Positions 41,830 through 54,069 of a stretch of 64,000 bases of DNA are shown one piece after another. The notes below the pieces were generated by a model. That model saw only the letters and a program-made list of their open reading frames with translations, had not been told where the DNA came from and made no database searches. This DNA comes from a virus, in IMG/VR virus record IMGVR_UViG_3300028388_004772, positions 1 to 64,000 of that record; one strand, written 5' to 3'. Both the position numbers and the translations under genes were made by a program. The number at the start of each line of letters is the position of its first letter. Positions within the stretch are counted from its first letter, which is position 1.

Positions 41830-42390
41830 TTACATTTGAAGAAAAATGTCAACAGGAATAGCTAATCTTAATTGAGATGTATATTGTTTGACATAGTGAT
41901 ATACATAACCAGGAAAAATTAAAACATCTCCCGTCTGAGGTTTATGTTCTATGGAAGCAAAATCATTTATGAATGGCGGCATAAATCCTCTGTTAGCGTT
42001 GAAGCGAGGGTCTTGCATAACAATTTCTCCGCCTGAGTCTTGTTCTTCGGCCATTATATAAAATACAGAAACAAATTGAGATCCACTATGGTTATGAGTC
42101 GCCATATTGTATCCATTTGTAGTTCCTGTTAACCATGCTTTGAGCGAAAAGTCAATAGTGTCTAAATCAAAGTTATAAACGTCTTTGAAAAAGTCACTAT
42201 ACTTTTCAGTAGCTACTTCTTTCAATAATGGTGCAGTTTCTATTAGATTAGACGTCCAATCACCCTGAGGTTTAGTGACATCTTCAGTTGATAATACAGA
42301 AGTTGCAATTTGGTCACAAACTTGGTAATCGATAGATGTCTTATAGATTGGTGTAGACCAGGCTTTATTTAAGCCCGCATTCAGCTTCAT
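41830..42390 (-). CDS. Putative Fe(II)/2OG oxygenase (phage-type, HxH)
   Basis: AW.......THNH....VSVFY, GGEI...DPR, P..GD.LIFP.Y..H.V, R..I double-stranded beta-helix pattern. Confidence 0.8.
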   Translation of the reverse strand: MKLNAGLNKAWSTPIYKTSIDYQVCDQIATSVLSTEDVTKPQGDWTSNLIETAPLLKEVATEKYSDFFKDVYNFDLDTIDFSLKAWLTGTTNGYNMATHNHSGSQFVSVFYIMAEEQDSGGEIVMQDPRFNANRGFMPPFINDFASIEHKPQTGDVLIFPGYVYHYVKQYTSQLRLAIPVDIFLQM

Positions 42391-42757
42391 AGTATTTCCT
42401 TACATCTGGTACCATTCCTTTTGTTGGTATAATTGGTACTTGATCTAAAATAGCATCATATGTTTCAGGATCTAAGTCATAAGGTACGAAGTATGGATCG
42501 TTTCCGTAAAGAAGTTCGGGATCATTCAGTAACTGATAAAAGTCTTCTCCATAATCTTCACAAATCCATGTAGCATAACAAATAGCAACAAAATATGATT
42601 TAGCAGGGTAAATCCATTCTGAGACATTTTCATAAAAATGTTTTACTGCATCCCCTACAATATCTTGTGAGTTAATTATATTAACTTTATTAAGATCATC
42701 ATTATAGTCTTTGTTTAGACGATGATATATCTCTTGTTTGATTTTCCATAACTTCAT
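42365..42757 (-). CDS. Hypothetical protein of the radical-SAM cluster
   Basis: 130 aa from MKLWK; overlaps both neighbours. Confidence 0.7.
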   Translation of the reverse strand: MKLWKIKQEIYHRLNKDYNDDLNKVNIINSQDIVGDAVKHFYENVSEWIYPAKSYFVAICYATWICEDYGEDFYQLLNDPELLYGNDPYFVPYDLDPETYDAILDQVPIIPTKGMVPDVRKYYEAECGLK

Positions 42758-43655
42758 ACCATTCAATTAGCCCCTTGTAACCATTACAGCTATTTTCCAA
42801 ATCACGAACATATCTATAATGTTCTGTTAAACATCTTCCTTTGTATCGACAGCTCTGACATATAGGACTAAGGTTGTTTTTTTCCTTTTGTGTCCATTCA
42901 ATATATTCATCAAAACTTTTTAGCTCTAAAAAATATTCCTTATCATTAATATCAAACTCAAGAACACCAAAGTTTCCATCCGGCGTGATATAAACATGGT
43001 CATCTGAAAACGCGTTATATTGACCATCAATACTTTCAATAATTTTAGATTCATTGACAAAGTTAAACTTTTTGTCAACTCCAGATTGAATCCATTTTTT
43101 AACAAATTCTTCAAAGTCTCTGTGTGTTATATTATAGGAGTTGGCTTGATTAATACTATATGGTTTGATTTCAACTGATTCAATTGACCCGCATACATTT
43201 AACTGGCTAATCATGCTGTCAACATTCATCTGCAATACAGCAGGGGATGCTAAGACTAATACAGCAATAGGTTTAGGTGAGAACATCATGTTTTGAAAAA
43301 CAAGCTCGTTTTTTTCTCGTGCATTAAAGTCATAAGATACTGAAAGATATACATCTTCATCAAAAAAATAATTATGAATCATAGACATATTCGTAATAAT
43401 ATTAATCTCACCATCATAATACTTTCTAATTACATTTTTATAATTGTAAAACACTTCTGGCTTAAGTAGACCTATCTCCCCACCATACATATCCAAATAT
43501 TTTATTTCTGGTACTTCTGATAACCTTTGATCTAATTTTTCAAAAGATAAGCGCCGGCGATCAGACAGCTGTTCTTCAGTCAAGTAACAAAAAGAACATC
43601 TAAAGTTACAATGATAACTAGGATTTAGTGATAATGTGACTGCTTTCGTCGACAT
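42702..43655 (-). CDS. Radical SAM enzyme with Cys-rich C-terminal (SPASM/twitch-like) domain
   Basis: CNFRCSFC, YGGE, C-terminal CQSCRYKGRC...SC. Confidence 0.9.
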   Translation of the reverse strand: MSTKAVTLSLNPSYHCNFRCSFCYLTEEQLSDRRRLSFEKLDQRLSEVPEIKYLDMYGGEIGLLKPEVFYNYKNVIRKYYDGEINIITNMSMIHNYFFDEDVYLSVSYDFNAREKNELVFQNMMFSPKPIAVLVLASPAVLQMNVDSMISQLNVCGSIESVEIKPYSINQANSYNITHRDFEEFVKKWIQSGVDKKFNFVNESKIIESIDGQYNAFSDDHVYITPDGNFGVLEFDINDKEYFLELKSFDEYIEWTQKEKNNLSPICQSCRYKGRCLTEHYRYVRDLENSCNGYKGLIEWYEVMENQTRDISSSKQRL

Positions 43656-44667
43656 ATGGGGTCACCTCAAGGTTCAGTCCATTGGCTTCTATAATAGATG
43701 GGGCAATAGATTTCATAAGTTTACAATGGTCTTCTACCATATTATGTAGCTTCTGATCCTTAATTGTCTTCTTACAACCATTACAGATCTGAAACATAGG
43801 ACAGGAATAACATGCTTGCTTCATTGAATTAAGATACAAGTCATCTCGCAGAGGATGAAACATCTCCCCATTCATCTCTTGTTCAAAGTTAATGGCTTTC
43901 TCTCTATCATCTCCAAACGCCCCGCATGAATAGTAATCACCTTCTGGCTGTAGGGTTCGAATACCTGAATCACAATCCCTATTCTGAGGACAGACGGTCT
44001 GTTCGCCTCTGAGTCTCCTGACCATCTGTTGAGTATTATGTTCCCAATCTGTCAGACCAGCCTTCCAGATCTCAACATACTTTTCATAAATCTTTGCAAG
44101 CATATAAGGTTCTGATTGAACACCAGAGGCCATTGCATAGTTGACCTTACACACCACACCCATCTTTTTAGCGAGCTCGACAGTTTTTAACACGGTGTCT
44201 TCATTGTCCTCTGTAATCACTGCGATGAATGAAGGACGATAACCAACCTTGTCCAACATCATATCAGAAACAGCCCAGAAGTCATCTTCTGTGAATACGG
44301 TATAGTCACCTTTGAGTCTTCCGTCTCCATATTGAAAAGATGTAGCGATTCCGACACGTGGATGTCTGAATAAATCTAACCACTTGCTCGGTTTCTTATA
44401 GAATGGCCACAGATTAGTAGTCAGTGAAATAGAGGTATCATAGCCTCTTTCATCTAAAAAATCAATGATTTTCCAATAATAACTTGGATCGATCATTAGC
44501 GGATCGCCACCATTGACGATGATGGTGTTTGTATTTGGATACCGATCAAGAAATCTGTACACGTGCTCTAGATCAAGCTCAGCTGCTTTATCTTCAACGA
44601 TATCTGTCGAGGAACAGAATGTGCATTTAAAATTACACAGCTCAGTTGGTTTAATAATTAAGTCCAT
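43618..44667 (-). CDS. Radical SAM/SPASM enzyme
   Basis: IIKPTELCNFKCTFC, NGGDPL, CPQNRDC...SC, CYSCPMFQICNGC...HC. Confidence 0.92.
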   Translation of the reverse strand: MDLIIKPTELCNFKCTFCSSTDIVEDKAAELDLEHVYRFLDRYPNTNTIIVNGGDPLMIDPSYYWKIIDFLDERGYDTSISLTTNLWPFYKKPSKWLDLFRHPRVGIATSFQYGDGRLKGDYTVFTEDDFWAVSDMMLDKVGYRPSFIAVITEDNEDTVLKTVELAKKMGVVCKVNYAMASGVQSEPYMLAKIYEKYVEIWKAGLTDWEHNTQQMVRRLRGEQTVCPQNRDCDSGIRTLQPEGDYYSCGAFGDDREKAINFEQEMNGEMFHPLRDDLYLNSMKQACYSCPMFQICNGCKKTIKDQKLHNMVEDHCKLMKSIAPSIIEANGLNLEVTPYVDESSHIITKS

Positions 44668-45118
44668 CTACCTTATACGCCAAATTAATAGCAACCCTTA
44701 CTTGATCTGTAGGATTTACTCTGTGTTTAACATGCGATGCTTGGCTAAGCATAACTAGTAAATGTTTTTTAGGCTGAACACACCCGACGACGCTATCATT
44801 ACACTGTATCATCAACTCTCCACCGTGGTCAACAGTAGTGAGATAATACAGAAAAAACGTGTTGTATCCCTCAACTAGATCATTATGCCATTCCATAGTC
44901 GAATGTTCTGATCCTACAAACATAGAGTATGTGTAGTCAGAATAACCTGGGAAATACGGAGCAATATAAGAGCTACCGACATAGCTACTCATATCGTTAA
45001 GATTAACATCAATCATACTAAATGAATTAGACTGCGGCATGTCGTATTGAGGTATCATTTTCTCAATACTTCTGTCTTCAAATGTCACAAATCCATGAGT
45101 AAAAAAGTTATCAATCAT
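44651..45118 (-). CDS. Fe(II)/2OG oxygenase
   Basis: WHND, LYYL, GGEL, HRV, distal R. Confidence 0.8.
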   Translation of the reverse strand: MIDNFFTHGFVTFEDRSIEKMIPQYDMPQSNSFSMIDVNLNDMSSYVGSSYIAPYFPGYSDYTYSMFVGSEHSTMEWHNDLVEGYNTFFLYYLTTVDHGGELMIQCNDSVVGCVQPKKHLLVMLSQASHVKHRVNPTDQVRVAINLAYKVDGLNY

Positions 45119-45133
45119 ATAGTAAAGTAATTT

Positions 45134-45664
45134 TTATCTACCTAAACCAGGAATAAAAAATTCAAAAGTTAACATACGGCGTTCTCCACCTTTATGAGTT
45201 GCTTTATGTTTAAACGCGTGTGTTTGATTTACCCATACGAATTGGTTTGGTTTGTGCGAAATACTAAATTCTTCAAAACCATTAGAAAAATCGATTGTAT
45301 TTCCGTATGGGTCTCCATCGTCTAAATAAATTAAAAAATTAGTATTCAAAGGTCTTTTGACTTCTTCGTAATCGCTATGCCACAGTGAAGACTTGTAGTC
45401 AACGCCAGACCACATACCATTAGTTATAAATTCAAATTCATTCGACACTTGCTTAATGTATTTTTCTGCAACGACTTCTGTAATTTTATCTAATAGTTCT
45501 TGAGATTCTGGAGCATAGACCATTTCTTCTTTCAAGTCTCGCTCTTTGTCTTCGCTTACACAAGTTGGAAACTCGTGTCCTTCGAATAAAGATACAACAT
45601 CCATACAAAATTGATCAGAATAGTATCCTTTTACAAAAAAATCTGTTAATTCTTGCTTTTCCAT
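45134..45664 (-). CDS. Fe(II)/2OG oxygenase
   Basis: WHSD, FLIYLD, HKA, RR.L.FEF. Confidence 0.75.
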   Translation of the reverse strand: MEKQELTDFFVKGYYSDQFCMDVVSLFEGHEFPTCVSEDKERDLKEEMVYAPESQELLDKITEVVAEKYIKQVSNEFEFITNGMWSGVDYKSSLWHSDYEEVKRPLNTNFLIYLDDGDPYGNTIDFSNGFEEFSISHKPNQFVWVNQTHAFKHKATHKGGERRMLTFEFFIPGLGR

Positions 45665-45705
45665 TATTGATTATCCTGCTGTAATCTATGTGTTTATATA
45701 TGCTA

Positions 45706-46194
45706 TTAAGACCAACCAACACTCAATGTCTTTCTTGGTACTGATCCAAAGTATGGACATATCTTGTGTAAAAGAGACGCGTCAAAAGTCACAATTGTTC
45801 CTTTCTCAGGTTGAATTCTAATTTTGTTATTGGGAAAATTAAATAAGTTGTGATTAAAATATATGTCAAGTTCTCCACCAACCCATTTACTAGTATCATA
45901 GTCGAGAAATAATAAAGTTATCCACTCAGCCTCGTTTTTGTCGTCATGTAACTCCCACAATATACAATCTCGCGAATTTTTATCATAAGTTGGAACACTA
46001 ATAGTATGCGCAAGCACTGGATCCATTAATTTATGAGTTAACCCATATACTTCAGCTTGCAACAATTTTAAAATATAGTGATCACTGAGCTTTTGTAAAA
46101 CGTTATGCCCTTCTCCTTCTTTGAAAGGAAGACATAGTATATCGTCGAGCATCTGCTGAGGTATTGCTTTATGTGATATATTATATTTTTGCAT
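45706..46194 (-). CDS. Fe(II)/2OG oxygenase (prolyl-hydroxylase-like)
   Basis: LHDD, LLFL, W.GGEL, P.KG..V.FD..L.H.I.P, RK.L..GW. Confidence 0.82.
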   Translation of the reverse strand: MQKYNISHKAIPQQMLDDILCLPFKEGEGHNVLQKLSDHYILKLLQAEVYGLTHKLMDPVLAHTISVPTYDKNSRDCILWELHDDKNEAEWITLLFLDYDTSKWVGGELDIYFNHNLFNFPNNKIRIQPEKGTIVTFDASLLHKICPYFGSVPRKTLSVGWS

Positions 46195-47749
46195 CGATAT
46201 AATTCTCTAGAATGTCTCGGTTTTCATTCAATATCTTTTGTCCTCTATATTGAATATTGTCACCATTAGGTAAAGTATCCATACTAAATCGATTCTGAGA
46301 TAATAGCGAAGATTTAAGAATAGTGCATAGTGCTATAAATTCTGGAAGTTGATTAAGCCCATTCCATAATGCTTTAATATATGGCGATATTTTTTTAAAA
46401 GACATATACTTGGCCATCCATGTTTTGTCTAATCCTTTACATATCTTATTCATTAGAGTCATTTCAATATAATCGTCTATTGAATACGAATAACATTCGA
46501 CTATTGTTTCATATTCAAGTTTAAGATCTTTATAGATCGTATTATCTAAATCGTCTTGGTGGCCAAAGTTAGGATCCATCTCGTTTGTAACAACGATGGT
46601 CTTGATACCATACTTGTTTTTATACTCTGGGTCTGCCGCTTCTGTAGCTGGCAATATCATATACGGATATCTATTATCGTCCCAATAATTTAGATGATGA
46701 TAAAGATCATATTCTTCGTAAAAATCGCTAATAGTTGAGCCAGGCATTCCCATAATTAACTCAAGATCTATGTAGAAATCTGATGGATCTGTCGCTTCAT
46801 TTTGTATCTCCCGAGCTCTATCTAAGACGTAATATATCTGATCTTTTTTAATATCAATTCGTTTAGCCACTTCTCTGGCTTCGTCTGATATAGACTGAAT
46901 ACTAATCGATATTTGTCTTTTAGACATACCCAATTGAACCATACGTCTTAGTATGTCCAACTTTCTCTCAATATCGAGTGTTTTTAATATTGACAATGAA
47001 TCTCCAACACTCAAATTATATTTTGCAAACAAAGATATTACTTCAAAATCTCTTTCTTTAAACATCCCAGTGTTTGCGTCAGTAAGATCTACGTACATTA
47101 ATTCAAACTGACTTAAGTACCGAAGCTCATCTTCAAATATATTTAAAGGCTTTTTAATTACCTTTATTCCTGTACCACCACCCCATTCGCAATAAGTGCA
47201 CTTAAAAGGGCATCCTCTAGTAGTCTCACCTGAAATTATGATCCGTTCAAAGATGTCAAGGTTTTCTTTAAAATAATAAAAGACTTTTCGAAAATAAGAG
47301 TCGCATCTTTTATATACATTTGTATAGCCGTAAACAAAATTAGTTTTTTTTGGAAGCGAAGGATCAATATAGCGATCAATATAGTTTGTTATAAACAACT
47401 CCCCATATGTTAATGGGTCTGCAGCTACAGTATAGTTTTTAACTATGTCAGAATTGAGATGAGGTCCACCGACTACTGTGATCACATTAGGATCAAGTTG
47501 AGATCTAATATTTTCATTAATTGAATAGTTCCACACATAGTTGCAGAACAACACAATATCGCAGTCTCTTAGATTATCAAGAATCATGTCATAAGTCATA
47601 TGATCCCATTGGTATACTGGTTCGACCCATTCAACTCTATCGTTAAATGCACCATGATCTTCATAGTATGTTTTAAACAACATCCAACTATAATTGAACT
47701 CACTTCGAGAAGCATTACTTGCTGGATTTATGTAGCCGATTTTTAGCAT
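46181..47749 (-). CDS. Cobalamin-binding radical SAM enzyme (class B methyltransferase-like)
   Basis: N-terminal B12-binding-like region (YVWN, VVGGPH), ETTRGCPFKCTYCEWG, DAN.G, SIQS, ELIMGMPG.T. Confidence 0.88.
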   Translation of the reverse strand: MLKIGYINPASNASRSEFNYSWMLFKTYYEDHGAFNDRVEWVEPVYQWDHMTYDMILDNLRDCDIVLFCNYVWNYSINENIRSQLDPNVITVVGGPHLNSDIVKNYTVAADPLTYGELFITNYIDRYIDPSLPKKTNFVYGYTNVYKRCDSYFRKVFYYFKENLDIFERIIISGETTRGCPFKCTYCEWGGGTGIKVIKKPLNIFEDELRYLSQFELMYVDLTDANTGMFKERDFEVISLFAKYNLSVGDSLSILKTLDIERKLDILRRMVQLGMSKRQISISIQSISDEAREVAKRIDIKKDQIYYVLDRAREIQNEATDPSDFYIDLELIMGMPGSTISDFYEEYDLYHHLNYWDDNRYPYMILPATEAADPEYKNKYGIKTIVVTNEMDPNFGHQDDLDNTIYKDLKLEYETIVECYSYSIDDYIEMTLMNKICKGLDKTWMAKYMSFKKISPYIKALWNGLNQLPEFIALCTILKSSLLSQNRFSMDTLPNGDNIQYRGQKILNENRDILENYIDAKI

Positions 47750-48261
47750 TTTATTCTAAACACTCTACCGTTCTCAACAACCTTAGGCCCATCATATACC
47801 GAAGACGCGTAGGGGGATTCCATAATATTTGTATTTAATTCTTTAGCTCTTTCTCGCATTGTTTCTACAGTTGGAATCAAATCACCTTTTTTACAAAATG
47901 TGTCAATGAGTAGTTTATACATTACTTTTTGCTCTTTGCGGCTAAAGTAATGTATAAAATTGCCATTGATTTGAATGTTGTTAACTATATTGCCTTCAAA
48001 ACTAATCCACATAATCTCAAGTTCGTCAAGATGTGTTTTTGGCAAACCATTAAATTTTTCAGTTTTTTCTTCAATCGCATTTGTAATATTCTTGTCGCTG
48101 AAAAAACGATCATGAATTGGGAGAGAACAGATGTAAATTTTATTAATTGGTGTTTTAAAATATATGCATGGCGGCACGCCCTGTGGTATATAATCAAAAC
48201 ACACTTCTGTGACTGTGTACGGAAACTTTATTCCGTTTTCAATATCTGTTTGTGAAAACAT
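47743..48261 (-). CDS. Hypothetical protein of the cluster
   Basis: 172-aa ORF coupled to the B12 radical SAM gene. Confidence 0.65.
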   Translation of the reverse strand: MFSQTDIENGIKFPYTVTEVCFDYIPQGVPPCIYFKTPINKIYICSLPIHDRFFSDKNITNAIEEKTEKFNGLPKTHLDELEIMWISFEGNIVNNIQINGNFIHYFSRKEQKVMYKLLIDTFCKKGDLIPTVETMRERAKELNTNIMESPYASSVYDGPKVVENGRVFRIKC

Positions 48262-48262
48262 A

Positions 48263-49279
48263 TTATGCTCGAGCTATAATGCCACTTGCTGCATCAATGT
48301 ATCTGAATGTTTCTTTATAGACGCACTCTTCCATTTCTTGTCTATATCTATAATCGTGTTGCATAAAGCAGCCTAGTGTGCACCGATTAAAATATTCACA
48401 CGTAAGACATCCATACTTTTCCATGAAACTTTCTTCGATGGGTGAGTTATCCATTGGTTGTATGTCATGATCATACATCACTTTGTCTTCAGGCGATTGT
48501 ACAAGGTTACCACACATACACATTGTATTATCTTCTAATATAAGCTTACTGCTTCTGCAACTAATGTAGTTCGTTTGCCTTTCAATCCACTCAGCAATAG
48601 GGCTAAGTTTAGGGTAGTTGTTTATAAAGTATTTGAATACAGCATATAGCTCATGATCAGTTGGTGCTTGGTGGTGTGCTGTTTTGTCTGGCATGTAGTA
48701 GTCAGCGTACAGATAGAATCCATCTCTATAGAATTGATCTAAGTTTTTATCTCCTTTAAGAAATGCTTTGATGTTCTGTTTAGTCAACAAAAGACCAATA
48801 CCATCCAAATGCTCTTGAAAGTAGTATAAGTTTTTCTTGAACAATGCTAAGTCTTTTTTATTGAATCTACCAGAGGGATCGTAGCTAGTAAAAAGAGTAG
48901 AAGGAATTGCTTTTAATAGAGTTTCTATTAGGTCAATTTTAGTTGTGACGAGATTTGTTACCCAATTGACAGACGTATTAATGTTATATTTCTCACCAAG
49001 GTCAAAAATCCCTTGAGCAAGTTTTATATAATCTTGGTTGAGCTTTTCATTATAGATTGAGTCAGCGAATATTTCTCCACCCATAATATTAAAAACTACA
49101 GATGATTTTTTCTCTTCTAGAAGAAACTGCTCAATTGGCTCAAGCTTTTCAAGAACCGTATCGATCCCTGTCAGATTACCATGATCTTGCCAACAAAACG
49201 AGCAAGAGAGATTACAAAACTCAAAAAGATGAATGGTGTACTCTTGTTGGTGATCTCTCTTTGCATCTAATAAAATCAT
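48263..49279 (-). CDS. Radical SAM enzyme with SPASM-like domain
   Basis: CNLSCSFC, MGGE, SC...CMC, CLTCEYFNRCTLGC...EC. Confidence 0.9.
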   Translation of the reverse strand: MILLDAKRDHQQEYTIHLFEFCNLSCSFCWQDHGNLTGIDTVLEKLEPIEQFLLEEKKSSVVFNIMGGEIFADSIYNEKLNQDYIKLAQGIFDLGEKYNINTSVNWVTNLVTTKIDLIETLLKAIPSTLFTSYDPSGRFNKKDLALFKKNLYYFQEHLDGIGLLLTKQNIKAFLKGDKNLDQFYRDGFYLYADYYMPDKTAHHQAPTDHELYAVFKYFINNYPKLSPIAEWIERQTNYISCRSSKLILEDNTMCMCGNLVQSPEDKVMYDHDIQPMDNSPIEESFMEKYGCLTCEYFNRCTLGCFMQHDYRYRQEMEECVYKETFRYIDAASGIIARA

Positions 49280-50337
49280 CTCAAACTATAATTTTTCAGC
49301 TTCTCAGGATTTGTTCTATATAAAGTTCTGCAGTACGAAATAAAGATTGTATTGATCTTACCCATTCTACCTATATCGGTAGAACTAACATGAGTAGCAT
49401 CGGTCTTACATTCTAAAAACTCTTTGATCACCTTGTTCAGTTGAGTGTCGGTAAGCTCACCTTTCATGATTGAATTCAAATATGGAATCTCATCGTCAAG
49501 TGTTTTAAACATCGCGATTGAAGATTGTGCTGATCCAGTGTTTTCTAATTTTGAACAAACATCGATTGCTGCGTTTACTATTTTCTTCGCTTGAGTGTAG
49601 GTAAGCCCTTCTAGTGTAAACTTGCCGGCCGAGCCCGCTATGTAAGGACTCTTATTAACGTCCTCAAAGCTTTTATACGTGGATGATTCAAATATTTCTT
49701 TAAAGAAATTTAAAGACGAATAATTAGAAACATCTAATAATTCGCCTGTGTTGCCAAGAATCTTCTGTAGCTCATCATCTAGAATGTTTAACTCCATGTG
49801 TTGCATCAAACACATCAATCCGTCATCAATTTCTCTACGCATGAACGTAGCAAATGTTTTCTTAAGATTAGATTTGTATCGTGTGTCACCATTTACTTGA
49901 CTAGCAACCATAAATTCTAGCGAAGGAGTATATTGGTAACTTGACAGGTCCAGCTCCGGAGCTTCATCCCAATAATTAATAAGAAAATCTTTCATGCCTT
50001 CACATGATTCATTATACAATTCTCGGTGCTTTACGATACACTCAGCATATATCACCCAATCGTCAGCACTCATATTCGTAGCTGATTTATACCACGTGGC
50101 AGCGATCTTCGCAAATGATTCTATATCAGCATGAATAGCTCTCTTATCATTAGCCAACAGCATATGTAAAAATAAATTTTCTGCATCTTCAAAATCAAAT
50201 GATGGAGCAATGAATTGCTCCTCAGGTTTCAAATCTTCTTTAATAGTATCTGACCAATCAAAATATGCACCGCCAATCTTAGTGTTGTACAACACATCAG
50301 GTGTGTCTAAATAAATTCTATTAAACAGGTGTAGCAT
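49276..50337 (-). CDS. Hypothetical protein of the cluster, 353 aa
   Basis: Start MLHLFNRIY at 50337 overlaps the upstream TGA. Confidence 0.7.
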   Translation of the reverse strand: MLHLFNRIYLDTPDVLYNTKIGGAYFDWSDTIKEDLKPEEQFIAPSFDFEDAENLFLHMLLANDKRAIHADIESFAKIAATWYKSATNMSADDWVIYAECIVKHRELYNESCEGMKDFLINYWDEAPELDLSSYQYTPSLEFMVASQVNGDTRYKSNLKKTFATFMRREIDDGLMCLMQHMELNILDDELQKILGNTGELLDVSNYSSLNFFKEIFESSTYKSFEDVNKSPYIAGSAGKFTLEGLTYTQAKKIVNAAIDVCSKLENTGSAQSSIAMFKTLDDEIPYLNSIMKGELTDTQLNKVIKEFLECKTDATHVSSTDIGRMGKINTIFISYCRTLYRTNPEKLKNYSLR

Positions 50338-50969
50338 CAGTTTGCCTCTTGTACTTCTTGAATATTGCCGGATGCAATTGCCCATGTAAGGAGAAACATT
50401 GGGTTATTCTCATTAGCCCAGTAAGAAAATAAATTATTTCCTTTAAACATGTAATCGTTAAAGTAACTTGAAAAATATGTAAGATTATTTGGATTTACTT
50501 TTTTGAACAACAAATAAAAATCTTTATTCTTAACCAAACTTATGAAGTTTATTCCTGTTAAATCTTTTGTATCATCTTCTGGAAATTGTTTAACCCAATT
50601 TTGCATTTCTTCAGAATTAACTGAATATATGTTAAAAAGAGTTAATGAATCGATTTTTCTTTCCCAAGATAACAATTCTTCTTTATTATCTACATCTTCA
50701 CCCATCTTTAATTTGCCTAACATAGCTATGACGACAGTTTCAAGAGACGGAATGTTTACTAACACTTGAGTTTTTAAATAATCCCCAACAAACTCTTGAT
50801 CAAAGTTAATTACATCACATGGAAGATCTAAATTACCTAAGTACGTTAATAATCTATCACCCCGTAACTCAGAATTTTGATAATCAATAATAAAGTATGT
50901 TTCTTTATCTTCAAAATACTTTTTCAAATCATCAATTGCAATTGGTGCAGTTGTATCAATAACATTCAT
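50337..50969 (-). CDS. Hypothetical protein of the cluster, 210 aa
   Basis: Coupled (TAATG) directly after the CHxS-repeat protein. Confidence 0.75.
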   Translation of the reverse strand: MNVIDTTAPIAIDDLKKYFEDKETYFIIDYQNSELRGDRLLTYLGNLDLPCDVINFDQEFVGDYLKTQVLVNIPSLETVVIAMLGKLKMGEDVDNKEELLSWERKIDSLTLFNIYSVNSEEMQNWVKQFPEDDTKDLTGINFISLVKNKDFYLLFKKVNPNNLTYFSSYFNDYMFKGNNLFSYWANENNPMFLLTWAIASGNIQEVQEAN

Positions 50970-51568
50970 TATCTTCTACCTCTTGAAGAGTGACACGAGG
51001 AGTGGCAGCTAGCGTGACAAACATTTCGTGTTAAAGTAATAGTGTTATCTCTTTCGCTGTTATATGCAGCTCTAAAATTACTAAAAAGAGTTTCCAAATT
51101 ATCATCGTCAATTATCTCGCCTGCGGAAACGCTAGCATTATCTGGATCGGTGATAGTTTGTAAATAATCATCTGATAAGTATGCAACTTGGGTTTGGTCA
51201 AACACAATACCAAACGTACCAATAGGTCCTTTGTCCGTATTCGATGTGCCAGATACTCCAGTAACGTTTAATCTAGCTCTAACTTTACGTATGGATGTAT
51301 ACCGATTTGTTTCTGTAACAAGTGCATTGTAAATTGCATTAGCATCTATCAATTCACTTCCGTCAGCTTTAATATCATCCCCATCAATGCTAATTGATTT
51401 TCCGTCTGAATTGCCACCCATAAATGCATCAGTAAGCACAGTAACACCTGAATACGTAGGATTTGTATTTGTAGCCCATACAATCCCACCATTTGCATGA
51501 TCCACTACAAATTCTTTGAATCGATTCACTATATTCTGGGCTGTGACTGGATTAGTTAATGTAGCCAT
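50969..51568 (-). CDS. Putative modification substrate/precursor with a C-terminal (CHxS)3-RGRR tail
   Basis: 199 aa ending VCHASCHSSCHSSRGRR; all three Cys lie in the tail; adjacent to a radical SAM/SPASM gene. Confidence 0.75.
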   Translation of the reverse strand: MATLTNPVTAQNIVNRFKEFVVDHANGGIVWATNTNPTYSGVTVLTDAFMGGNSDGKSISIDGDDIKADGSELIDANAIYNALVTETNRYTSIRKVRARLNVTGVSGTSNTDKGPIGTFGIVFDQTQVAYLSDDYLQTITDPDNASVSAGEIIDDDNLETLFSNFRAAYNSERDNTITLTRNVCHASCHSSCHSSRGRR

Positions 51569-52571
51569 TTATTTCTTCATCCATCTTTATCATTAATAAC
51601 TTTGGAGCCGGACATACATCATCTTCCCATTCAAGCTGATGGCAGTCTCCTTTACAGTATTTATACATGTTACAGGTGTAACACCTTGGATCTCTTGTTA
51701 GCTCTTGGGCAATGATTTCACACCGTTTTGGCTTATTAAGCACATTTAACCCATCGTCAATATGTCCATACACTTCTTCAGGAGCAGCGTTTGGGCAACC
51801 TGATATAGACCCATCGGCATTAATTGTAAATAATTTCTGTTCACAATCACGACAAAAAGTACCAGCTGAGTTAAAATTGTCTTCGAACTTTGTATATATG
51901 TTTTCTAAAAAGTCATTTCTAAACCAAGCTCTTGCATCATAGCGTTTAGTTTGTTCATACATTTTTAAAAACCAGCGCTGGAGCTCCAGATTAGTAGGAA
52001 AAATTATTGGATTTTTTCTTGCTGATCCGTTTAAGGTTAATCTTTCGAGTGCTAATTCCTGCACTCCTAGTTTTTTTACAAATTTAAGAAGATCTATTGG
52101 TTCCATATCTATAACTGATCTACTAAGAGAAACAAACAATTTAATTGTATAACCGCGGTCAAGCAGCAATTTGATATTGTGTTCCCACAGATCGATTTGT
52201 TTTTTATTCTCAAATCGAATGTCTGAATCCCACGACGTTCCAATACGTTTATTTAACGCATTATCCATAAAGTCTAATTTATCATCAGTAAGCTTAAAAA
52301 CAAGATTTGTTGTAGCTCCGTAGCTAAATCCATTAGCTTTTGTGCGATGATAAAAATCCCACATGCTTTCTATAGAGGCGAGAAATGGTTCACCTCCATG
52401 AAACTCAAAATGGCCTGTCCTTCCACTTGTTAACAAATTGCACCAATCTGCAGTTTTTTTAGAATCAAAAAATATCTTTCTACCATTCTTTCCAGAAGTA
52501 AAGCAGTGACTACAATTAAGATTACACGTCTCAGTAGTTTTAATGTAAAACATCAGGTCATTTTTAATCAT
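51552..52571 (-). CDS. Radical SAM/SPASM enzyme
   Basis: YIKTTETCNLNCSHC, FHGGEP, CRDC, GCPN, CYTCNMYKYCKGDC, CP. Confidence 0.93.
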   Translation of the reverse strand: MIKNDLMFYIKTTETCNLNCSHCFTSGKNGRKIFFDSKKTADWCNLLTSGRTGHFEFHGGEPFLASIESMWDFYHRTKANGFSYGATTNLVFKLTDDKLDFMDNALNKRIGTSWDSDIRFENKKQIDLWEHNIKLLLDRGYTIKLFVSLSRSVIDMEPIDLLKFVKKLGVQELALERLTLNGSARKNPIIFPTNLELQRWFLKMYEQTKRYDARAWFRNDFLENIYTKFEDNFNSAGTFCRDCEQKLFTINADGSISGCPNAAPEEVYGHIDDGLNVLNKPKRCEIIAQELTRDPRCYTCNMYKYCKGDCHQLEWEDDVCPAPKLLMIKMDEEINGYIN

Positions 52572-52948
52572 TCGTCACCGATCGACAACATTACAGAATC
52601 ATACTTATTGATTGCTTCATGAGGTGTATTGGCTGGTATAAGTAGAGTGTCTGTAATCTCTAACTCTTTACCATTTATTATCATTGTCTTCGTCCCCGAT
52701 AGCACTTTTAATTGTACATCATATGGGTCAATATGACAACGAAAACTTACAGCATTTTTTGGGGAAATGTATAGGTGGACAGTCTTGGGACAGTACTCTG
52801 TATAGTACGACTCTAATCCCTCAACCTTTATTGTCTTTTTATTTTCAGCAATATAATAACCAACCTGATCTAGTGTTATCTCATGATCAAGTTGGTTCTC
52901 ATCAATTATGTAAGCCTTAGTACCATACTTTAAAATTTCAGATAACAT
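52568..52948 (-). CDS. Cupin/JmjC-like oxygenase
   Basis: HLYISP....SF..HIDPYDV......G.K, L.IPA.TPH.A; resembles the minimal core of JmjC/ROX-type hydroxylases. Confidence 0.75.
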   Translation of the reverse strand: MLSEILKYGTKAYIIDENQLDHEITLDQVGYYIAENKKTIKVEGLESYYTEYCPKTVHLYISPKNAVSFRCHIDPYDVQLKVLSGTKTMIINGKELEITDTLLIPANTPHEAINKYDSVMLSIGDE

Positions 52949-53829
52949 TCAACTATTTTTACTTCCTCAAAATTATTGCTTTGTAAAGCAATGCCAACCA
53001 TTGGACCAGTACCTGTTACTGATGCGAGACCAGGAGAACAAGCGTATACCACATCTCCTTTCGCTACAGTCCCCTTGATTCTGACAGGTACCCTTCCGAC
53101 AAGGGCTACTGATTGACCCTCAGAAGAAGAATTCATTATATATGCGGGATTTGTTGAAATGACCCCAGTAACCTCTTTACCAGAAGTCCATGGCTCCATT
53201 TCATCATCTTTGTTGGTACCTATTGTCATTACAGTCCCTGGGGGCTGAATGGTCTCCGTTGTATATTTCTCGGCTACGTCAGCATATTGTGCTTGAGTAG
53301 CAGTAGCGGTAATTATATTGGCACTAAAATTGCTCGAATCATCACGAAATACAATTGTATTTGCAGTATTGTCCGCAGTAGCATTTGATGTAACAGTAAA
53401 TGTTCCTCCGTTCGAGCTAACGCTACCAGAAATACCATTACCTGATGTTGCACCTACAGCTACGTAGTTGCCAATTGTAAACTCACCTGTAATTGAATCA
53501 TAATTTAGCCCATTACCCGAGGAAAATAAGCTTCTAGTACTTTGCGCATCTACAGAGCCTGTAAGAGTAAATATACCAGAACCGCTATTGTAAGATAAAG
53601 AAACGCCAGTAGCTTGGTCATCCACGCTAATCGATTGTCTTGATATAGTAGTAAGTTCACCTGAATCATCAAAGGCGCTGACTATATTTCTTACTGTGTT
53701 AATAGCATCAACAACATTACTATCACCTGTCACTAAATTATCGACATTTCCAACATCATTAGAAATAGTATTTGTCTTAGTGACAAATACCGACATAGTG
53801 TCTGACAGGTTAACATTAGTTATAGCCAT
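52930..53829 (-). CDS. Fibre/spike protein with C-terminal intramolecular chaperone (autocleaving) domain
   Basis: AQYADVAEKY, PGTV..IG, GVISTNPAY.MN, VAL.GRVPV...G.V.KGD. Confidence 0.8.
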   Translation of the reverse strand: MAITNVNLSDTMSVFVTKTNTISNDVGNVDNLVTGDSNVVDAINTVRNIVSAFDDSGELTTISRQSISVDDQATGVSLSYNSGSGIFTLTGSVDAQSTRSLFSSGNGLNYDSITGEFTIGNYVAVGATSGNGISGSVSSNGGTFTVTSNATADNTANTIVFRDDSSNFSANIITATATQAQYADVAEKYTTETIQPPGTVMTIGTNKDDEMEPWTSGKEVTGVISTNPAYIMNSSSEGQSVALVGRVPVRIKGTVAKGDVVYACSPGLASVTGTGPMVGIALQSNNFEEVKIVECYLKF

Positions 53830-53835
53830 TTTAGA

Positions 53836-54069
53836 TTACCTATTTTTCTCGACTAATTGTACCAATAAATCTTTGATTTCTTTTATCTCGTCTTTAAGAT
53901 CTTCGACCTCATTGGCGAGCGACAGCTGCTGTTCTTTTTGCTGCTTCATTAATTGTTTTCTCTTTCGGGCCGCTTCAATTTCAGCCTTGTTTGTATTGAT
54001 GACAACATTTGTTTCTGTGTCTCTTACAAAACCCGAAAGATTTTCCACTTCCTTATACTGCAAGTGCAA
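53836..54069 (-). CDS. Small coiled-coil protein
   Basis: VE....FVRD..T..VINTN, EV..LK.EI.EIK.LL; typical gene after VrlC-like proteins. Confidence 0.75.
   Translation of the reverse strand: MHLQYKEVENLSGFVRDTETNVVINTNKAEIEAARKRKQLMKQQKEQQLSLANEVEDLKDEIKEIKDLLVQLVEKNR

Follow-up and report, generated by a model that had tools for sequence, protein, structure and literature searches.

A conserved set of four radical SAM enzymes encoded beside a phage virion protein suggests an undescribed system for maturation of its Cys-His-x-Ser tail

The presence of a dense cluster of radical SAM (rSAM) and oxygenase genes among the structural genes of a marine T4-like phage raises the question of what these enzymes act on, and whether their substrate is encoded beside them. 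We addressed this for the 64,000-nucleotide stretch analyzed here (positions 1 to 64,000 of IMG/VR record IMGVR_UViG_3300028388_004772; hereafter the window), in which a first-pass annotation made from the sequence alone had described 15 co-oriented, mostly overlapping genes at positions 41830–52948, encoding four rSAM enzymes with Cys-rich SPASM/twitch-like tails, one B12-type rSAM, four Fe(II)/2OG oxygenases, one JmjC-like cupin, four hypothetical proteins and a 199-aa protein ending in Cys-His-x-Ser repeats. That observation was confirmed. All 15 open reading frames were found on the minus strand (Table 1), and of the 14 junctions between them 11 overlap, with gaps of 1–41 nt at the other three. 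The surroundings are those of a late structural region of a T4-like myovirus, with gp23-like capsid, gp20-like portal, sheath and baseplate wedge genes (phrog_138, phrog_213, phrog_23, and phrog_438). The capsid protein is 60–67% identical to those of Phage C48C1, Melnitz, and HTVC008M, and all 10 copies of the T4-type late promoter motif TATAAATA in the window lie on the coding strand.

Table 1. Features of the cluster and its flank, with family matches and occurrence among the 82 related loci that carry the tail protein.
Positions	Strand	Feature	Description	Matches and conserved residues	Occurrence
52930..53829	minus	Flanking protein	Fibre or spike protein with a Peptidase_G2 intramolecular-chaperone domain; context, not part of the enzyme set		70 of 82 loci; precedes the module in most loci
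52568..52948	minus	Cupin	JmjC-type cupin	PF08007 (JmjC_2) 28.7 bits (cut-off 22); conserved H72-x-D74...H110	Frequent accessory, 49 of 82 loci
51552..52571	minus	rSAM_339	rSAM/SPASM enzyme; gene overlaps the tail-protein gene by 17 nt	Pfam Radical_SAM; TIGR04085 31.7 bits (cut-off 27); phrog_1802 E 1e-62; CX3CX2C plus 8 conserved auxiliary Cys	Core
51658..51665	minus	Late promoter motif	T4-type motif TATAAATA inside the rSAM_339 gene, 90 nt upstream of the tail-protein start codon
50969..51568	minus	CHxS-tail protein	199 aa; alpha/beta body predicted globular, plus C-terminal tail predicted exposed; proposed substrate	phrog_35144	Core
50969..51019	minus	Tail	16 residues CHASCHSSCHSSRGRR plus the stop codon, which overlaps the start of the next gene (TAATG)	(C-H-x-S)3-R-G-R-R
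50337..50969	minus	h210	Protein of unknown function, 210 aa	phrog_20767; AF2 pLDDT 91.9; no fold match	Core, 81 of 82 loci
49276..50385	minus	h369	Protein of unknown function; true start probably the Met 16 codons downstream, at 50337	Resembles RSL2 ORF069 at the N-terminus	Accessory, 23 of 82 loci
48263..49279	minus	rSAM_338	rSAM enzyme with a partial SPASM domain	Pfam Radical_SAM 25–26 bits; phrog_1802 E 7e-44; conserved C22/C26/C29; 6 conserved C-terminal Cys	Core
47743..48261	minus	h172	ORFan with 5 Cys	No homologue in any related locus	0 loci
46181..47749	minus	Class-B-like rSAM	B12-type rSAM (522 aa), probable methyltransferase	Pfam Radical_SAM; NF033712 91 bits; TIGR04013	Accessory, 36 of 82 loci
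45706..46194	minus	2OG oxygenase	2OG-Fe(II) oxygenase, 162 aa	PF13640 29.1 bits (cut-off 27); conserved HxD...H	Accessory
45134..45664	minus	h176	2OG oxygenase paralogue	hhalign to the 155-aa oxygenase, probability 100%, E 5e-45; conserved H96-x-D98...H153	Accessory
44651..45118	minus	2OG oxygenase	2OG-Fe(II) oxygenase, 155 aa	PF13640 26.7 bits (just under cut-off 27); conserved HxD...H	Accessory
43618..44667	minus	rSAM_349	rSAM/SPASM enzyme	Pfam Radical_SAM; TIGR04085 25.9 bits (just under cut-off 27); phrog_1802 E 4e-61; 8 conserved auxiliary Cys	Core
42702..43655	minus	rSAM_317	rSAM enzyme with a twitch-like tail	Pfam Radical_SAM; phrog_1802; 4 conserved C-terminal Cys	Core
42365..42766	minus	h133	Protein of unknown function, 133 aa; always follows rSAM_317	phrog_20737 E 2e-45	Core
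41830..42390	minus	2OG oxygenase	2OG-Fe(II) oxygenase, 186 aa (2OG-FeII_Oxy_5)	PF13759 44.4 bits	Frequent accessory, 52 of 82 loci

Profile searches supported the enzyme assignments to different degrees. Five open reading frames matched the Pfam Radical_SAM family (PF04055), of which four reached the cut-off of 29.5 bits, whereas rSAM_338 scored below it but keeps the CX3CX2C cluster motif in its orthologues. The four enzymes of ~340 aa all matched phrog_1802 (E 1e-33 to 1e-62), in which they are deep paralogues. When judged by the C-terminal pattern CX9-15GX4C ... CX2CX5CX3C ... C and by TIGR04085, they belong to the SPASM/twitch subgroup, with conserved C-terminal Cys counted across orthologues. 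The 522-aa enzyme is class-B-like, but its score with the KedN5 family model NF033712 was far below the cut-off of 700 bits, its match to TIGR04013 covered only residues 79–188 (E 5e-9), and the Pfam B12-binding domain was not detected at E ≤ 0.01, so that the first-pass label of B12-type was only partly confirmed. Three of the oxygenases were matched by Pfam 2OG families and the fourth, h176, was linked through its paralogue. The HxD...H iron triads of the oxygenases and the cupin are conserved in orthologues.

The tail protein was examined in more detail. It belongs to a family of 674 clusters at 50% identity, and its AlphaFold2 model (pLDDT 87; tail pLDDT 51–74) had no fold match in the PDB. 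Ten of the 16 tail positions (C1, H2, S4, C5, H6, C9, H10, R13, R15, and R16) are invariant in 82 of 82 loci, far more than expected by chance, although the protein bodies fall to 28–29% identity. Of 145 representatives of clusters at 50% identity, 134 end in exactly (CHxx)3-RxRR. The number of repeats was always exactly three and the tail always lies at the very C-terminus. The five Ser codons of the tail all differ in the window, so it is not a repeat at the DNA level.

Co-occurrence with the enzymes, which had been set beforehand as the point on which the first-pass reading could fail, was complete. In 82 of 82 related loci the tail protein co-occurs with these rSAM genes in one fixed order, and in the 80 loci where the contig is not cut, the rSAM_339 gene lies immediately upstream of it. 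Six further loci on contigs of metagenome-assembled genomes showed the same, one of them with an unrelated protein body. Conversely, all 15 phage isolates with an rSAM_339 homologue have the tail gene directly downstream, including RSL2/RSF1, FLC, Atu_ph07, Phosso, and pPa_SNUABM_DT01, and these isolates span T4-like, phiKZ-related (RSL2) and Rak2-like (Atu_ph07) lineages. The core comprises the four SPASM/twitch rSAM orthogroups, the tail protein, h210 and h133, whereas the oxygenases, the cupin and the B12-type rSAM are variable accessories. The first-pass description of the genes as inserted among structural genes is therefore misleading: although their GC content is lower than that of the flanks (0.33–0.36 vs. 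0.40), they form a conserved syntenic block, an old module carried by hundreds of related and unrelated large phages, jumbo phages among them, and not an island peculiar to this phage. A further correction is that an exact late promoter motif lies inside the cluster. Such a motif was found within 200 nt upstream of the tail-protein start in 60 of 79 related loci, against 0.03 expected.

Evidence that the tail protein reaches the particle came from published proteomics of Atu_ph07 (PMC6102473, Table S5), in which the homologue gp170 (31,894 Da) was present in the virion proteome with 8 peptides and 35% coverage, whereas gp165, gp168, gp169 (the h210 homologue), gp171, and gp172, the neighboring enzymes among them, were not detected. 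It was most abundant in the top gel band, where proteins of 90–140 kDa run, but this could reflect an SDS-stable oligomer rather than a covalent link. The evidence rests on this one homologue, and the sample came from PEG-purified phage and also contained some non-structural proteins.

Taken together, the first-pass interpretation, that a multi-enzyme pathway crosslinks, hydroxylates and methylates a phage protein that is probably a virion component, was partly supported. The enzymes co-occur tightly with tail proteins of this type, they resemble peptide- and protein-modifying SPASM enzymes (DynA, anSME, QhpD, PapB, and CteB are the nearest curated and solved relatives) rather than nucleotide or cofactor families, and, as the annotation had also stated, no transporter or leader peptidase was found in the cluster by the profile searches. 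We consider it likely, with a probability of roughly 0.6, that this is a conserved phage module that matures a virion protein after translation. In this view, a protein of ~190 aa would be made late in infection from its own late promoter, with rSAM_339 translationally coupled to the substrate gene, and its exposed tail would be the substrate of the four deeply diverged rSAM enzymes, two with full SPASM domains, one with a partial SPASM domain and one with a twitch-like tail. These would most likely abstract hydrogen atoms from tail residues to install covalent changes on the Cys and/or His-x-Ser units, candidates being thioether or His-to-C-beta cross-links, or conversion of Cys to formylglycine in the last C-x-x-S-R unit. 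The accessories (the cupin, up to four 2OG oxygenases and the B12-type rSAM) may add hydroxyl or methyl groups, and the modified protein, but not the enzymes, would be built into the particle. Gene content, intact catalytic motifs, co-occurrence, tail invariance, the late promoter and the virion presence of one homologue are shown, whereas that the tail is the substrate, the type of chemistry and the role in the virion are inferred, since no mass shift or cross-link has been observed on any family member. Four enzymes for 16 residues is unusual, so some may act on other virion proteins, and oxygen-sensitive rSAM enzymes here sit beside O2-dependent oxygenases in phages of aerobic hosts. We found no paper describing this system.

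Other readings are less likely. Three Cys and three His within 12 residues could simply bind a metal or an Fe-S cluster, either as a structural site in the particle or as a carrier feeding the Fe-S-hungry rSAM enzymes, which would then modify something else, such as the neighboring fibre or baseplate proteins among which the module always sits. Some phage tail proteins bind Fe-S clusters or metal ions, and marine T4-like genomes rich in rSAM genes often also carry Fe-S assembly genes (PMC5332604). We regard this as unlikely, because a carrier role does not fit a protein that ends up in virions while the enzymes do not, and a plain metal site does not explain the invariant Ser4, the R-x-R-R end, the strict C-terminal position or the obligatory link to four rSAM orthogroups. 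In addition, CxxxCxxxC is not a usual spacing of Fe-S ligands.

Still more doubtful is that the enzymes make or modify a small molecule, nucleotide or DNA base, with the tail protein as an unrelated neighbor. Radical SAM enzymes do take part in phage DNA hypermodification (PMC8989533), and the N-terminal cores gave weak viperin, QueE, and MoaA matches. However, these cover only the generic rSAM core, whereas the full-length matches and the conserved SPASM Cys pattern point to peptide and protein maturases, the genes lie in the late structural operon and not with replication or nucleotide-metabolism genes, and co-occurrence with the tail protein is complete. Least likely is a true RiPP, in which the tail would be cut off, for example by a host protease, and act as a toxin, signal or anti-defence molecule. 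A large leader followed by a short conserved C-terminal core resembles RiPP precursors, and the basic R-x-R-R end could be a recognition site, but the conserved module holds no leader peptidase or exporter, the body is modeled as a well-folded 180-aa domain conserved across the family, and the homologue is found in virions, which looks more like protein maturation than a RiPP.

Among known systems, the best full-length NCBIfam matches were to cross-linking rSAM/SPASM maturases (DynA for rSAM_349, E 3e-14; QhpD, PapB, and DynA about 1e-9 to 1e-10), although all scores were an order of magnitude below the family cut-offs. These enzymes, with CteB and His-containing three-residue cyclophane synthases such as HtkB/HaaB (PMC11499958), form Cys thioethers or His-to-C-beta links across an aromatic-x-x triad, which the H-x-S units would fit, but their substrates are short exported peptides, or the small QhpC subunit, and not phage particle proteins. 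The anaerobic sulfatase-maturing enzyme (anSME; PDB 4K36–4K39) is among the closest solved and curated relatives, has 8 auxiliary Cys as rSAM_339 does, and acts on a folded or folding protein, converting Cys in C-x-[PA]-x-R to formylglycine. The last tail repeat, C-H-[GSNA]-S-R, shares only the Cys-to-Arg spacing with this motif, the residue at +2 being Gly, Ser or Asn rather than Pro or Ala, there is no sulfatase here, and TIGR03942 scored 44.8 and 36.6 bits against a cut-off of 349.

The two repeat-associated families named in the first-pass annotation were also compared, and the system is a member of neither. The CXXX-repeat peptide maturation system likewise pairs an rSAM/SPASM enzyme with a target that has Cys at every fourth residue, but its maturase model TIGR04115 scored 19.8 bits for rSAM_339 against a cut-off of 350, and the target here is a folded 190-aa virion protein with only three repeats and an invariant His after each Cys. 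For the bacterial HXS antiphage system (HxsA-D; Li et al., 2026, PMC13128918), the HxsB (TIGR03978, cut-off 370) and HxsC (TIGR03977, cut-off 267.9) models gave best scores of 27.4 and 28.5 bits, covering the N-terminal core only, and no NCBIfam HxsA or HxsD match was found for the tail protein, h210 or h133. The HxsA-type substrate has tandem HxS units with period 3 and N-terminal processing, whereas the repeat here has period 4 with an invariant Cys, in exactly three copies at the extreme C-terminus, the system is phage-encoded with its protein going into the virion, and there are four rSAM orthogroups rather than two. The HXS system nevertheless provides a precedent, in that several rSAM enzymes (HxsB, HxsC) mature a whole protein rather than a short peptide, this protein carries tandem His-x-Ser units rich in basic residues with the mapped modification (+8 Da) on an S-H-R-S-S unit, and the product acts outside the cytoplasm, at the phage-entry interface.

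The window covers the first 64 kb of a linear, 141,247-bp IMG/VR virus record, which was estimated by CheckV to be 84% complete and which derives from a marine T4-like myovirus. It encodes a gp23-like capsid protein, a portal, a sheath and baseplate wedge proteins, and its capsid protein is 60–67% identical to those of Phage C48C1, the OM43 phage Melnitz and Pelagibacter phage HTVC008M. Between a fibre gene with an intramolecular-chaperone domain and further, Cys-free structural genes lie 15 minus-strand ORFs, and the gene cluster described in the first-pass annotation thus proved to be real, its gene content being confirmed with Pfam, NCBIfam and PHROGs. The cluster encodes five radical SAM (rSAM) proteins, the only ones in the genome, of which four of about 340 aa each (rSAM_339, rSAM_338, rSAM_349 and rSAM_317) all fall in phrog_1802, while the fifth is a 522-aa class-B-like enzyme. 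Three 2OG oxygenases were recognizable by Pfam, a fourth was identified by profile comparison (hhalign E 5e-45), and a JmjC-type cupin was also present. The GC content is 0.33–0.37 across the module compared to about 0.40 in the flanking structural genes, even though the module is syntenic in many phages. Coordinates of the features discussed here are collected in the table.

Table. Positions of features in and around the radical SAM module and in related loci.
Feature	Sequence	Position	Strand
Fibre or spike protein with Peptidase_G2 intramolecular-chaperone domain	window	52930-53829	-
Relatives of this fibre or spike protein	L001; L084	5605-7428; 7372-9252	
Region of lower GC content	window	42000-54000	
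Late promoter motif inside rSAM_339	window	51658-51665	-
All exact late promoter motifs	window	2761, 11355, 14773, 22133, 22141, 26524, 40453, 41811, 51658, 61522	-
369-aa ORF (h369), listed start	window	49276-50385	-
172-aa ORF (h172)	window	47743-48261	-
2OG oxygenase identified by profile comparison	window	45134-45664	-
Contig of a metagenome-assembled genome labelled Bacilli	L090	1-20048	

Alignment of orthologues showed that CX3CX2C is kept in all rSAM enzymes, together with eight auxiliary Cys in rSAM_339 and rSAM_349, six in rSAM_338 and four in rSAM_317. An HxD...H motif is kept in the cupin and in three of the four 2OG oxygenases, whereas the 186-aa oxygenase keeps a different set of conserved His and Asp residues. 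The 199-aa protein of the cluster (hereafter the tail protein) ends CHASCHSSCHSSRGRR; its five Ser codons all differ, so the repeat is kept at the protein level.

The co-occurrence of the rSAM genes with CHxS-tail proteins, which had been set as a test beforehand, was examined in both directions. A profile of the tail protein found 890 proteins in a word-indexed search, which is a lower bound, and 674 clusters at 50% identity in an exhaustive search, nearly all of 175–230 aa. Of the 145 newly listed cluster representatives, 134 end in exactly (CHxx)3-RxRR, always with three repeats. Rare tail variants lacking the middle Cys were found in two representatives of the 50%-identity clusters, P0162 and P0194 (CHSNHANTCHTSKRSRR and CHSNHSNTCHSSRSRR), and a few others carry an extra Gly before the Arg block; such natural variants could show which residues the enzymes need. 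We retrieved 80 IMG/VR loci and mapped the window's proteins onto them; with the two isolate loci of RSL2 and Atu_ph07, these make up the 82 loci counted here. The gene order is fixed, with variable genes in brackets: fibre – (cupin) – rSAM_339 – tail protein – h210 – (h369) – rSAM_338 – (B12-type rSAM, 2OG oxygenases) – rSAM_349 – (2OG) – rSAM_317 – h133 – (2OG) – structural genes. The gene for rSAM_339 is next to the tail-protein gene in 80 of 82 loci, the other two being cut by contig ends, and the two genes usually overlap by 17 nt. Ten of the 16 tail positions are invariant in all 82 loci.

The reverse search gave the same result. Megablast of the island and tblastn of the window's own tail protein against the phage collection found nothing, but a tblastn search of 50,697 phage records with rSAM_339 returned 15 records: 11 Ralstonia and Burkholderia phages of the RSL2, RSF1, FLC and S13 group, Agrobacterium phage Atu_ph07 (two records), Sinorhizobium phage Phosso and Pseudomonas phage pPa_SNUABM_DT01. 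All 15 carry the tail gene directly downstream, although their protein bodies are only 28–29% identical to that of the window. The rSAM cluster of the jumbo phages RP12 and RP31 (PMC5468394) was found to be a different cluster. Among one genome for each of about 185,000 prokaryote species, only six loci matched, all of them on contigs of metagenome-assembled genomes (MAGs) that carry the same rSAM set, and one of them has an unrelated body but the same tail. The contig labelled Bacilli (L090) has at least six rSAM paralogues of the same kind, and its 228-aa protein has a body unlike the rest of the family but ends CHQNCHSSCHSSRGRR; it may represent a version of the module from a phage of Gram-positive hosts. 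The contigs of MAGs labelled Marinovum, Rickettsiales, Bacteriovoracaceae and Bdellovibrionota (L085–L089) carry the full phage module together with fibre and baseplate genes and are probably phage contigs binned into bacterial MAGs, so their taxon labels are not reliable host assignments. The module is therefore essentially phage-borne, old, and shared across unrelated phage lineages (T4-like, phiKZ-related and Rak2-like).

The four SPASM/twitch rSAM enzymes are deep paralogues (19–27% identity, hhalign probability 81–98.5%), each kept as its own orthogroup. Together with the tail protein, h210 and h133 they form the core, whereas the cupin, h369, the B12-type rSAM and the 2OG oxygenases come and go. 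The 172-aa protein h172, which contains 5 Cys and is encoded between the B12-type rSAM and rSAM_338, had no tblastn match in any of the 82 related loci and no family hit, and is an ORFan within an otherwise conserved block. The listed start of h369 overlaps h210 by 49 nt; a Met 16 codons downstream gives the N-terminus shared with RSL2 ORF069 and a 1-nt overlap, and is probably the true start. The fibre or spike protein with the Peptidase_G2 domain precedes the module in T4-like loci, and its relatives also precede the module in Atu_ph07 (gp176, a virion protein) and in Phosso, making it a candidate partner of the tail protein in the particle.

Two independent lines of evidence indicated that the tail protein is a particle protein. 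In published proteomics, Atu_ph07 gp170 is listed among virion proteins (Attai et al., 2018; PMC6102473, Supplementary Table S5), with a listed mass of 31.89 kDa that equals the 31,894 Da computed here for the homologue, 8 unique peptides and 35% coverage. It was seen in gel bands 1–9 and was most abundant in band 1, where proteins of 90–140 kDa peak; by our count of the table, only three of roughly 95 proteins under 40 kDa peak in that band. The neighbouring rSAM enzymes (gp165, gp168 and gp171), the cupin (gp172) and the h210 homologue (gp169) are not listed. As caveats, the phage was PEG-purified and some clearly non-structural proteins are in the list. The other line of evidence is a dedicated late promoter. 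All ten exact copies of the T4-type late promoter motif TATAAATA in the window lie on the coding (minus) strand just upstream of genes, whereas about 5 would be expected, spread over both strands, and they give a usable map of late promoters for the phage. One copy sits inside the rSAM_339 coding region, 90 nt upstream of the tail-protein start, and an exact motif lies within 200 nt upstream of this start in 60 of 79 related loci (L003–L082), at varying positions, compared to an expected count of 0.03 per such stretch. The tail protein thus has its own late promoter, as expected for a protein needed in larger amounts than the enzymes.

The tail protein gave a confident AlphaFold2 model (pLDDT 87, pTM 0.82) with a well-defined alpha/beta body, while the last 15 residues were of low confidence, so the tail is probably exposed. 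The body matched no solved fold: searches of the PDB with Foldseek, a wide VIA-align search (best Z 4.8) and a search of the Atlas returned nothing. Weak OmpA/MotB-like rows recurred in the PDB Foldseek and Atlas searches (TM 0.12–0.27) but were absent from the VIA top 50, and a peptidoglycan-binding fold is therefore not claimed. A search of BFVD returned only family members and three larger uncharacterised proteins (A0A8S5USJ8, A0A8S5USJ7 and A0A8S5USV2; 504–660 aa) of 'Myoviridae sp. ctijX18', which share the fold of the tail-protein body (Foldseek E 4.5e-4 to 5.8e-3), so the domain may also occur inside bigger virion proteins. The protein h210 was also modelled with confidence (pLDDT 91.9) but matched nothing in fold searches, and Protein Atlas feature searches of h210 and h133 gave only leads below 0.9. 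Prediction of a complex of rSAM_339 with the tail protein gave no answer (score 0.02) and is no evidence either way.

The full-length NCBIfam matches of rSAM_339 and rSAM_349 were to protein and peptide maturases, namely dynobactin DynA, the anaerobic sulfatase maturase (anSME), QhpD, PapB, TIGR04083 and TIGR04133, and the nearest solved structures were 8VPO, anSME and CteB. All scores were far below the family cut-offs, so these enzymes belong to no named family. The HxsB, HxsC and CXXX-repeat maturase models, which the first-pass annotation had named, scored only 19–29 bits, and a search with the PADLOC defence models gave only generic viperin-core matches.

The best-supported reading is that the four rSAM enzymes act on the exposed tail of a late structural protein, and that the modified protein then enters the particle. 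The gene content, the conserved catalytic motifs, the co-occurrence, the invariance of the tail, the late promoter and the presence of one homologue in virions follow from the analysis itself, whereas the role of the tail as substrate, the kind of chemistry and the function in the virion are inferred. The earlier proposal of a multi-enzyme pathway that crosslinks, hydroxylates and methylates a phage protein, probably a virion component, is thus partly supported, the crosslinking, hydroxylation and methylation themselves being inference. Three options for the chemistry fit the sequence: Cys thioethers of the sactipeptide, ranthipeptide or QhpC type; His-to-C-beta cyclophanes across each H-x-S triad, of the DynA or HtkB/HaaB type (PMC11499958); and conversion of Cys to formylglycine in the last unit, where C-H-[GSNA]-S-R has the Cys–Arg spacing of the sulfatase motif. 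The JmjC-type cupin belongs to a family that includes Arg and His hydroxylases of ribosomal proteins, and the tail offers both residues. A covalent link, or a very stable oligomer, would account for the band-1 behaviour of gp170.

Other explanations appeared less likely. A plain metal or Fe-S site in the tail, although the least improbable of these, is unlikely, since it does not explain the invariant Ser and Arg residues or the obligatory rSAM team. A small-molecule or DNA pathway is contradicted by the SPASM architecture and the gene context and is considered very unlikely, and so is a released RiPP, because the module lacks a peptidase and an exporter and such a product conflicts with the virion data.

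Radical SAM/SPASM enzymes are known for maturing small peptides, a few enzymes and, since 2026, one bacterial defence effector, but are not known for tailoring virus particles. Literature searches found only passing annotations, such as 'six radical SAM genes' in pPa_SNUABM_DT01 (PMC8541153), lists in the FLC6 and S13 papers, and counts of rSAM genes in marine T4-like genomes (PMC5332604); they yielded no description of this module and no paper linking these genes to the tail protein. While rSAM-dependent protein maturation as such is known, the module stands out for its scale (at least 674 clusters at 50% identity), its extreme constraint and its proposed virion target, and it is readily testable because cultured phages of Ralstonia, Burkholderia, Agrobacterium, Sinorhizobium and Pseudomonas carry it. 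If the tail is modified, the system would give new enzyme chemistry on a simple repeat, a new way of building or arming virions, and a possible link to the HxS-repeat defence that acts at DNA entry.

A more far-reaching reading, which remains possible but is held only tentatively, is that this would be the first case of radical SAM chemistry applied to a phage particle protein, in which a widespread, ancient four-enzyme team would convert the invariant (Cys-His-x-Ser)3-RxRR tail into a cross-linked or aldehyde-bearing, strongly basic knob. That knob could staple the protein covalently into the baseplate or fibre apparatus, which would explain the 32-kDa homologue running at the top of an SDS gel, or alternatively it could act at the cell envelope during DNA delivery. 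In the latter case it would be the phage-side mirror of the bacterial HXS defence, whose rSAM-matured HxS-repeat protein blocks DNA entry, and possibly a counter to it.

The closest known system is this bacterial HXS defence (Li et al., 2026; PMC13128918), in which a +8 Da change maps to an SHRSS unit and the mature protein blocks phage DNA entry in the periplasm; phage-encoded versions are not mentioned in that paper. The phage module satisfies none of the criteria for membership of the HXS system, but would work like it in outline, because rSAM enzymes would likewise mature a protein with basic H-x-S units.
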